Source: Escherichia coli
GTDB taxonomy: Bacteria; Pseudomonadota; Gammaproteobacteria; Enterobacterales; Enterobacteriaceae
Assembly: GCF_045037415.1 (NCBI RefSeq)
Contig: NZ_CP173438.1
Strand: one strand, 5' to 3'
DNA length: 64,000 bases
Positions 61,521 through 61,837 of this stretch are shown piece after piece. Below the pieces are notes generated by a model. The model was not told the DNA's origin. It worked only from the letters and a program-made list of their open reading frames with translations, and did no database searches. Position 1 is the first letter of the stretch. Each line of letters begins with the position of its first letter. The position numbers were made by a program, and so were the translations under genes.

Positions 61521-61536
61521 TGATTCAAAATGTCAG
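61521..61536. repeat. Left inverted repeat of putative invertible element (TGATTCAAAATGTCAG)
   Basis: Exact reverse complement of 61783-61798; 12 bp downstream of the recombinase stop. Confidence 0.75.
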
Positions 61537-61782
61537 ATTCCTACGTTTTCCTCAATTCTTCCATAAAAAAACAGCCCATTCAATTAAATAAAACACATAA
61601 CATGTTGATATTTCTAGCTAAAGTAAAATAACCCTATGATTTGAAATGATTAATCACAAAGGTCATACCAGTGATTAACTTTCGCCCATATCGTTAAATA
61701 ACACAAAATTAAAAACAATAAAAATCAAACAAATTAGATTTATATTCCAAGAAAATTAAATATTCAGGCTATTAAACCAAAC
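61537..61782. other. Putative invertible DNA segment (~246 bp, very AT-rich) bounded by 16-bp perfect inverted repeats
   Basis: Placement between a FimB/E-like recombinase and a LuxR-type regulator; IR boundaries; AT-rich content with promoter-like hexamers on both strands. Confidence 0.5.
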
Positions 61783-61798
61783 CTGACATTTTGAATCA
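61783..61798. repeat. Right inverted repeat (CTGACATTTTGAATCA), embedded in a 27-bp palindrome at 61782-61808
   Basis: Perfect reverse complement of the left repeat; CCTGACATTTTGA-A-TCAAAATGTCAGG palindrome read directly; 30 bp upstream of the regulator ATG. Confidence 0.75.
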
Positions 61799-61837
61799 AA
61801 ATGTCAGGTTTTGTAGCAATGGCGTGGACGAGTCTGA

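Follow-up and report, generated by a model that had tools for sequence, protein, structure and literature searches.

The right-hand end of a 64,000-nucleotide stretch of Escherichia coli DNA (assembly GCF_045037415.1, contig NZ_CP173438.1; referred to below, at its full length, as the window) raises the question of whether a short segment bounded by inverted repeats, placed between a tyrosine recombinase gene and a regulator gene, is a genuine DNA inversion switch, and if so, how its two visibly unlike boundaries are built and which of its states is seen here. The element is the published hyxS phase switch of the E. coli island PAI-X and not a new system. Taken as a whole, the explanation that we regard as very likely combines this identity with two-armed recombinase sites at both boundaries, a probable OFF state in the window, and possible excision of the switch.

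The identification of hyxS rests on the locus, its repeats, and its match to a characterized strain. The gene order in the window (betI-betB-betA, fimX, switch, hyxR, hyxA, hyxB) is that of strain UTI89, and the two sequences are identical at 284 of 287 positions across the two repeats, the interior, and the outer arm (see below), with the orientation of the segment shared. Such a match excludes the possibility that the published hyxS maps to some other sequence. The 278-bp segment (61521 to 61798) is flanked on its left by a gene whose product is recognized by the NCBIfam models NF007370 (251.6 bits, cutoff 221) and NF007371 (233.2 bits, cutoff 222) and carries the RefSeq label [quoted passage not shown] This is the sole recombinase at the locus, and its type rules out a serine-invertase switch of the Hin/Gin kind. 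A 1.8-kb region spanning the locus was found in 1,903 of 5,426 complete E. coli genomes, annotated in RefSeq as ipbA plus hyxR in the same gene order, with betA upstream and hyxA and the autotransporter gene hyxB downstream in the matching loci. Over these 1.8 kb, the haplotype of the window is 100% identical to that of strains of the sequence type 131 (ST131) type.

In the literature (PMC6083910, PMC3789825), hyxS adjoins fimX in UTI89 and CFT073, has 16-bp inverted repeats, and controls hyxR, the promoter of which is reported to lie inside the invertible interior. Published work also states that FimX alone inverts hyxS, FimB and FimE being unable to do so, and that FimX-driven inversion was shown experimentally in UTI89 (Bateman & Seed 2012, via PMC6083910 and PMC3789825). 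Locus, repeats, and UTI89 identity all fit this description, making the present finding a rediscovery of a known switch. According to the literature, FimX (IpbA) recombines both boundary sites and flips the 246-bp interior, and the flip toggles transcription of hyxR and the downstream hyxA and hyxB genes between two heritable states. The fimX stop codon lies 12 nt 5′ of the left repeat, so the recombinase itself is unaltered by inversion. An initial annotation of the window, made from the sequence alone, had already read the locus as a recombinase-driven switch before a regulator. That reading is upheld by the flanking FimB/FimE-family invertase and by the natural inversions described below. 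Real phase switches can thus be detected from raw sequence, even if in this case no new system is added.

The repeats themselves are well defined. Checked on the sequence, the left and right copies (IRL and IRR; Table 1) are exact reverse complements, as had been claimed, and the perfect 16-bp match extends no further at either end. They are also, as had been remarked, longer than the repeats of the fim switch fimS, the literature values being 16 bp for hyxS and 9 bp for fimS. The interior has a G+C content of 26%, compared to 52% for the window. When up to two mismatches are allowed, the window contains three copies of the 16-mer against an expectation of 0.04, one at the left site and one in each arm of a palindrome at the right site, and the IRL sequence was identical in all 23 full-length comparison loci. 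Perfect inverted pairs of at least 16 nt within 3 kb exist at only four places in the 64-kb window; the other three (11050 to 11102, 24299 to 24316, and 41693 to 41732) are hairpin-type palindromes. The palindrome that embeds the right repeat had been described as 27 bp long with a central A. The palindrome and its unpaired central A are real, but the size was understated: the full structure, AAACCTGACATTTTGA-A-TCAAAATGTCAGGTTT, spans 33 bp with perfect 16-nt arms (16 + 1 + 16).

Whether the segment inverts in nature was addressed with diagnostic queries for the three conceivable states of the locus, searched against all complete E. coli genomes, of which 1,891 matched. The orientation of the window (“native”) was present in 1,781 genomes, the exact inversion in 16, and a precise 271-bp deletion in 92, the three states together covering 1,889 of the 1,891. 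The inversion breakpoints coincide exactly with the 16-bp repeats; in NZ_CM171611, for example, the interior is identical at 241 of 246 positions to the reverse complement of the window interior. When 3 kb of flanking sequence was compared, the inverted genomes were distributed over at least five flank haplogroups, most of them differing by 0 to 14 single nucleotide polymorphisms (SNPs) per 3 kb from native or deleted siblings. This scatter indicates repeated inversion and not a rearrangement inherited clonally. Haplotypes up to about 200 SNPs per 3 kb apart share identical boundary sequences. The comparison with related genomes that the initial annotation had proposed as a check thus turned up the opposite orientation, in 16 genomes, together with conserved repeats.

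Several lineages have lost the means to switch. In a group of six genomes, most of them associated with dogs and about 94% identical to the window (NZ_CM176494 lineage), ISEc8 cuts fimX down to its last 114 nt; hyxS is inverted in this canine lineage, and both outer arms carry a substitution (CATTC, CAGA). It is apparently a natural recombinase-null, locked lineage. In O157:H7 (NE 1169-1) and DSM 103246, ipbA/fimX is a frameshifted pseudogene and the switch is native; in NE 1169-1, hyxR additionally has an internal stop and hyxB is truncated. Dead fimX genes in native genomes such as these imply that many “native” genomes are locked and that the native-to-inverted skew is inflated. The fixation of fimX-null lineages in one state, inverted in the canine lineage and native in O157:H7, is consistent with FimX dependence without proving it. 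Two further variants were noted. Strain E-93 (NZ_CP112988) carries hyxS inverted with ISVsa5 (IS4-like) at its right side, and its hyxR is truncated by an IS3-family element. In avian pathogenic E. coli (APEC) O18, at the equivalent of 61485 to 61540, an extra G before the A8 run near the fimX 3′ end shifts the frame, and FimX reads through the left repeat into the switch (204 versus 187 amino acids [aa]); the C terminus of the protein would in that strain depend on the orientation of the segment, as described for IpuA at ipuS. A census of native, inverted, deleted, and fimX-null locked alleles could be used to type strains as switch competent, locked, or switchless.

Why the two boundaries look so different was approached by comparison with fimS, with a paralogous switch of E. 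coli, and with the Salmonella T1-antigen switch, from which the division of each site into arms and crossover was inferred. Tyrosine-recombinase sites each need two arms. In the resulting model, each hyxS boundary would be a core site consisting of an arm of about 13 nt, a 7-bp crossover, and a second 13-nt arm (Table 1), and the “16-bp inverted repeat” would be made up of the crossover and the adjoining 9 bp of inner arm, over which the two sites happen to be identical. The alignment suggests reading the right palindrome as a full recombinase core site with both of its arms (13 nt each, around the 7-bp crossover TGA[A/T]TCA) instead of as an extra half-site. The perfect palindrome of the right site would follow from its having the canonical sequence (AAATGTCAGGTTT) in the inner as well as the outer arm, the arms being complementary at 13/13 positions (16/16 counted from the centre) in the state seen in the window and at 11/13 when inverted. 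The left site would combine a canonical inner arm with a divergent but conserved outer arm, and its arms are complementary at 6/13 positions in the window state and 8/13 when inverted.

The left outer arm matches the canonical arm at only 6/13 positions, yet the pattern GAAnGTAC is kept in all three switch families; the reverse complement of the arm reads GAAGGTACTGT in hyxS, GAATGAACTGT in the paralogue, and GAACGTACGGT in Salmonella. Judged by this conservation, it is a real, if noncanonical, arm, and the left site is not a single half-site. The earlier count of half-sites, two at the right boundary against one at the left, therefore did not survive the comparison, the left outer arm being poor but conserved in the paralogue and Salmonella. 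Since the 7-bp centre is constant across switches while the arms vary, the length of the inverted repeat would be set only by the similarity of the inner arms. The arm-crossover-arm model in this way unifies the 7-, 9-, 10-, 16-, and 18-bp repeats of ipuS, fimS, the Salmonella T1 switch, hyxS, and the paralogue, respectively. The crossover is self-complementary at 6/7 positions in hyxS, at 4/7 in the paralogue, and at no more than 2/7 in fimS (centre GGGGCCA).

The orthologues and paralogues used here were obtained by protein search followed by contig look-up; a scan of species-representative genomes for FimX peptide patterns gave a single, near-identical Escherichia contig. In the E. coli paralogue, a recombinase gene whose product shares 81% identity with FimX precedes two regulator-sized open reading frames (ORFs) (242 and 248 aa) and an autotransporter. 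The paralogous locus forms a second hyx-like island elsewhere on the chromosome, beside an acetolactate decarboxylase gene and a gene for a thiamine pyrophosphate enzyme (e.g., in GCA_050854415.1). Its 18-bp inverted repeat (TGGTTCAAAATGTCAGAT) surrounds an interior of 200 or 241 bp, a 41-bp indel separating the strains, and its sites read ..CATTC-TGGTTCA-AAATGTCAGAT on the left and ATCTGACATTT-TGAACCA-TTATGTCAGAT on the right, with a right-site symmetry of 10/13. The Salmonella T1-antigen switch (STM0716; Kelly et al. 2024, PMC11294581) encodes an orthologue of FimX with 72% identity. Its 7-bp centre (TGATTCA/TGAATCA) does not differ from that of hyxS, and the conserved left outer arm is shared as well; its inversion has been shown experimentally and is bidirectional with a bias to OFF (PMC11294581). 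It differs in that its arms have diverged, with GTTAA in place of TGTCAG, its right site is a poor palindrome (5 to 8/13), its interior cannot be aligned with that of hyxS, and it controls a glycan locus instead of hyxRAB. LT2-like strains have a repeat of only 10 bp, whereas that of S. houtenae reaches 16 bp.

Like hyxS, the type 1 fimbrial switch fimS (FimB/FimE, and in uropathogenic E. coli also FimX) is a promoter-carrying invertible segment beside its tyrosine recombinase genes, and FimX acts on both. The fimS IRL of K-12 and the hyxS palindrome share the geometry GACA-N13-TGTC and the arm motif AAnTGTC, and the paralogue right site has the same geometry. In contrast, fimS has 9-bp repeats around a 314-bp interior according to the literature (in MG1655 the repeats are 305 bp apart, start to start), a strongly asymmetric centre, and no site that is a good palindrome. 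Shared AAnTGTC arms with a differing crossover may help explain how FimX can act on fimS and hyxS despite their reported “poor alignment.” The ipuS element of CFT073 (IpuA/IpuB, ipuR-upaE), which FimX can also invert, resembles hyxS in its recombinase, its invertible element of about 260 bp, its LuxR-type regulator, and its autotransporter. It differs in its 7-bp repeats and in having the distal repeat inside the recombinase gene, such that inversion truncates IpuA, whereas the hyxS left site lies past the fimX stop codon.

The same comparison bears on the proposal of the initial annotation that two half-sites on the right against one on the left bias the direction of inversion, as half-sites do for FimE at fimS. 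We consider this unlikely. The sites do differ in arm symmetry (13/13 versus 6/13), and inversion alters both of them slightly; the two states are very unequal in number (1,781 versus 16 genomes), the orthologous Salmonella recombinase leans to OFF (PMC11294581), and the directionality of FimE at fimS is attributed in the literature to sequences at and around the repeats. However, inversion swaps only the inner arms, which differ solely in the 4 bp beyond the repeat (ATTC/GTTT), while the outer arms, bearing almost all of the asymmetry, are fixed in both states. Because the outer arms stay put, left/right asymmetry alone cannot tell an ON-to-OFF from an OFF-to-ON event. The asymmetry, being nearly the same in both states, cannot on its own speed up one direction, and the claim is not supported in the form in which it was made. 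Conservation of the left outer arm in three switch families also argues against a single half-site there, and FimX inversion of hyxS is described in the literature as bidirectional. As for the skew, it is inflated by a dead recombinase in many native genomes, such as O157:H7, and may stem from selection or growth conditions and not from a recombination bias. On this analysis, the 4-bp inner-flank change could still contribute to direction, as flanks do for FimE at fimS.

Which state the window represents was left undecided by the initial annotation, and as regards promoter prediction this is indeed so. The bottom-strand candidate it had pointed out (TTGAAT-17-TGGAAGAAT, i.e., TTGAAT-17-TGG-AAGAAT, 61555 to 61583) is present, but its position weight matrix score of 9.2 falls below the median best score of 9.8 in composition-matched shuffled sequence. 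The best scores toward hyxR were 8.5 in the native and 9.7 in the inverted orientation, against the same shuffled median, and a consensus promoter scan of 61400 to 61900 returned no sites. Calling ON or OFF from predicted promoters was rejected for this reason. Carrying the assignment over from the Salmonella T1 switch, the states of which have been defined by experiment, was likewise rejected, its interior having no significant similarity to that of hyxS in either orientation. The state can nonetheless be approached indirectly, and in this respect the earlier verdict was too cautious: the window is probably phase OFF, because the UTI89 reference and 99% of genomes have the same orientation. 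Reads inverted with respect to the UTI89 and CFT073 references are reported only on FimX overexpression, which supports OFF for the reference orientation, and CFT073 derivatives lacking all recombinases are hyxS-OFF. In GenBank, the predominant state of the orthologous Salmonella T1 switch is likewise OFF, according to Kelly et al. 2024 (PMC11294581).

The third state, the precise 271-bp deletion, concerns about 5% of the locus-bearing complete genomes (92/1,891). It fuses the left site, with its outer arm, to the outer arm of the palindrome at the right site, removing the interval 61524 to 61794 or 61525 to 61795, and leaves fimX and hyxR 58 bp apart. Two junctions occur, CCTTC-TGAATCA-AAATGTCAGG with centre A in about 72 genomes and TGATTCA with centre T in about 20. 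The latter count uses only the class with at least 99% identity (20 records, 12 of them as single 100% pieces); a count of 1,873 at ≥80% coverage was inflated by joined flanking pieces and was not used. Deletions lie on at least five flank haplogroups, three of which are 0 to 2 SNPs from siblings with an intact switch. They include the haplotype of the window itself (SA186 and BCE-1, 0 SNPs from the window), that of UTI89 (BCE049, 1 SNP from UTI89), and a poultry-associated haplotype at 0 SNPs from an inverted-state genome; two further deletion haplotypes carry the T-type junction. Intact fimX was retained in 13 of the 13 deletion loci examined. Many of the deletion genomes are poultry or APEC isolates. 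We found no description of the deletion alleles or of the palindromic core site in the accessible literature, a scope that excludes the original hyxS paper, so that an earlier description is possible.

The structure of the sites offers a route to these alleles. In Cre/loxP and Flp/FRT, 13-bp arms surround an 8-bp asymmetric spacer, and inverted sites give inversion whereas direct sites give excision. The core sites modelled here resemble loxP and FRT in being two-armed and palindromic, in their length of about 33 to 34 bp, and in that site orientation would be set only by central asymmetry. They differ in that the inferred crossover has 7 bp and is asymmetric at one base, so that orientation would be only weakly encoded, and FimX is of the small FimB/FimE type, without the N-terminal core-binding domain of Cre. 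In the direct register, the left TGATTCA and right TGAATCA differ only at the centre base. As the crossover is self-complementary save for that base, the left site could also pair with the right one in direct register, and such a synapsis would excise 271 bp in place of an inversion, locking the locus permanently. We therefore put forward, tentatively, that FimX synapses the sites in either register, mostly inverting the segment and occasionally excising it as a 271-bp circle to leave an irreversible, switchless fimX-hyxR junction. Cuts at the edges of a crossover mismatched only centrally would yield a one-base heteroduplex that could be resolved to either base, which fits both junction types. 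If true, this model of a “self-excising phase switch” would account for the exact deletion carried by about 5% of locus-bearing genomes, in at least five independent haplotypes and with both centre bases.

A number of points weigh against the overall explanation of the locus given here. The 7-bp crossover is deduced from alignment; the natural deletion junctions, with centre A or centre T, are compatible with staggered cleavage at the crossover edges but are no proof of it. That the Salmonella right site is a poor palindrome (5 to 8/13) means that function does not depend on the perfect symmetry seen in hyxS. In neither orientation does promoter prediction rise above chance. Lastly, the deletions could have formed without FimX, by slippage or palindrome-stimulated loss across an imperfect 16-bp direct repeat, and the mixture of A and T junctions does not discriminate between the two origins.

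This last point amounts to a serious alternative, namely that the deletions arose independently of FimX by replication slippage or palindrome-stimulated loss between copies of the direct repeat TGA(T/A)TCAAAATGTCAG, selection then fixing a permanently silent or fused hyxR. We judge it possible, somewhat short of probable, and the evidence between it and FimX-mediated excision is not decisive. A 12-bp perfect direct repeat (16 bp when inverted) does flank the deleted segment, one end point coincides with the strongly folding 33-bp palindrome, and a T-type junction would be expected from simple slippage within the 12-bp repeat. The commoner A-type junction, however, needs a crossover within the 3-bp TGA or a centre-base heteroduplex, and does not follow from the adjacent 12-bp repeat. 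At least five independent origins of one and the same 271-bp interval are also many for a repeat of 12 to 16 bp, fimX is intact in all 13 deletion loci examined, and the deletions end at the positions inferred for crossover in a site-specific system. As biology, the switch was already established; the site model and the repeatedly arising deletion alleles add to it modestly and may be of use to specialists.

The marked symmetry of the right boundary could also be explained by a second job of the 33-bp palindrome, either as an operator for a dimeric regulator (e.g., in HyxR autoregulation) or as an RNA hairpin in the hyxR leader (attenuation or mRNA stability), although we regard this as very unlikely. 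LuxR-type proteins bind palindromes, and this one lies 27 to 59 nt upstream of the hyxR start codon with a symmetry (13/13) above that of the related sites in the paralogue (10/13) and Salmonella (5 to 8/13). As RNA it would form a 15-bp stem, the 73-nt context folding at −29 kcal/mol (z = −5.3) compared to −19.4 kcal/mol in the inverted state. Against this, the stem lacks a following U-tract, nothing supports HyxR binding, an Rfam search of 60000 to 62700 matched no described RNA family, and the Fim-type arm consensus suffices to explain the palindrome. An intrinsic terminator was rejected as well: the U run lies in the stem, UGUAG follows it, and a terminator scan was empty.

Table 1. Features of the hyxS locus in the window (positions 1 to 64000)
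Feature	Position	Strand	Description
IRL, left inverted repeat	61521..61536	+	16 bp, TGATTCAAAATGTCAG; exact reverse complement of 61783-61798
IRR, right inverted repeat	61783..61798	-	16 bp, CTGACATTTTGAATCA
hyxS invertible interior	61537..61782		246 bp, 26% G+C
Left (recombinase-proximal) core site (putative)	61508..61540		Outer arm AAACAGTACCTTC 61508-61520, crossover TGATTCA 61521-61527, inner arm AAATGTCAGATTC 61528-61540
Right (hyxR-proximal) core site (putative), palindrome	61779..61811		Inner arm AAACCTGACATTT 61779-61791, crossover TGAATCA 61792-61798, outer arm AAATGTCAGGTTT 61799-61811
fimX (= ipbA = hbiF)	60945..61508	+	FimB/FimE-family tyrosine DNA invertase, 187 aa
hyxR	61838..62632	+	LuxR-type regulator, 264 aa, switch-controlled gene; RefSeq annotation, function from literature
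hyxA	62786..63547	+	hyxRAB unit, second gene; annotated in RefSeq at matching loci
hyxB (= upaB), 5′ part	63589..64000	+	Autotransporter gene running off the window; RefSeq “outer membrane autotransporter HyxB”

The genes downstream of the switch are those of the hyxRAB unit. In a family profile search, HyxR gave only weak matches to the LuxR-type helix-turn-helix, at residues of about 130 to 185. Published work connects HyxR with tolerance of nitrosative stress and survival in macrophages in uropathogenic E. coli, with O-antigen chain length and serum resistance in ST131, and with transient resistance to phage. The hyxA product had no NCBIfam family match, and the alternative name upaB for hyxB is taken from the literature. 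Between hyxR and hyxA, a 46-aa ORF (62629 to 62769) begins with an ATG that overlaps the hyxR stop codon (ATGA) and has a hydrophobic C-terminal half, FLLFWAAGLGGMLYSLYSVLAY. Some RefSeq genomes list its product as a hypothetical protein (WP_001406335.1), and it may encode a small membrane protein translationally coupled to hyxR.

Upstream of fimX, betB (56703 to 58176) shows a 1-nt insertion at 57336 relative to UTI89 betB (GGAGA[A]CCGG). The insertion splits the gene into ORFs at 56700 to 57422 and 57376 to 58176, reflecting either a pseudogene in this strain or a sequencing error.

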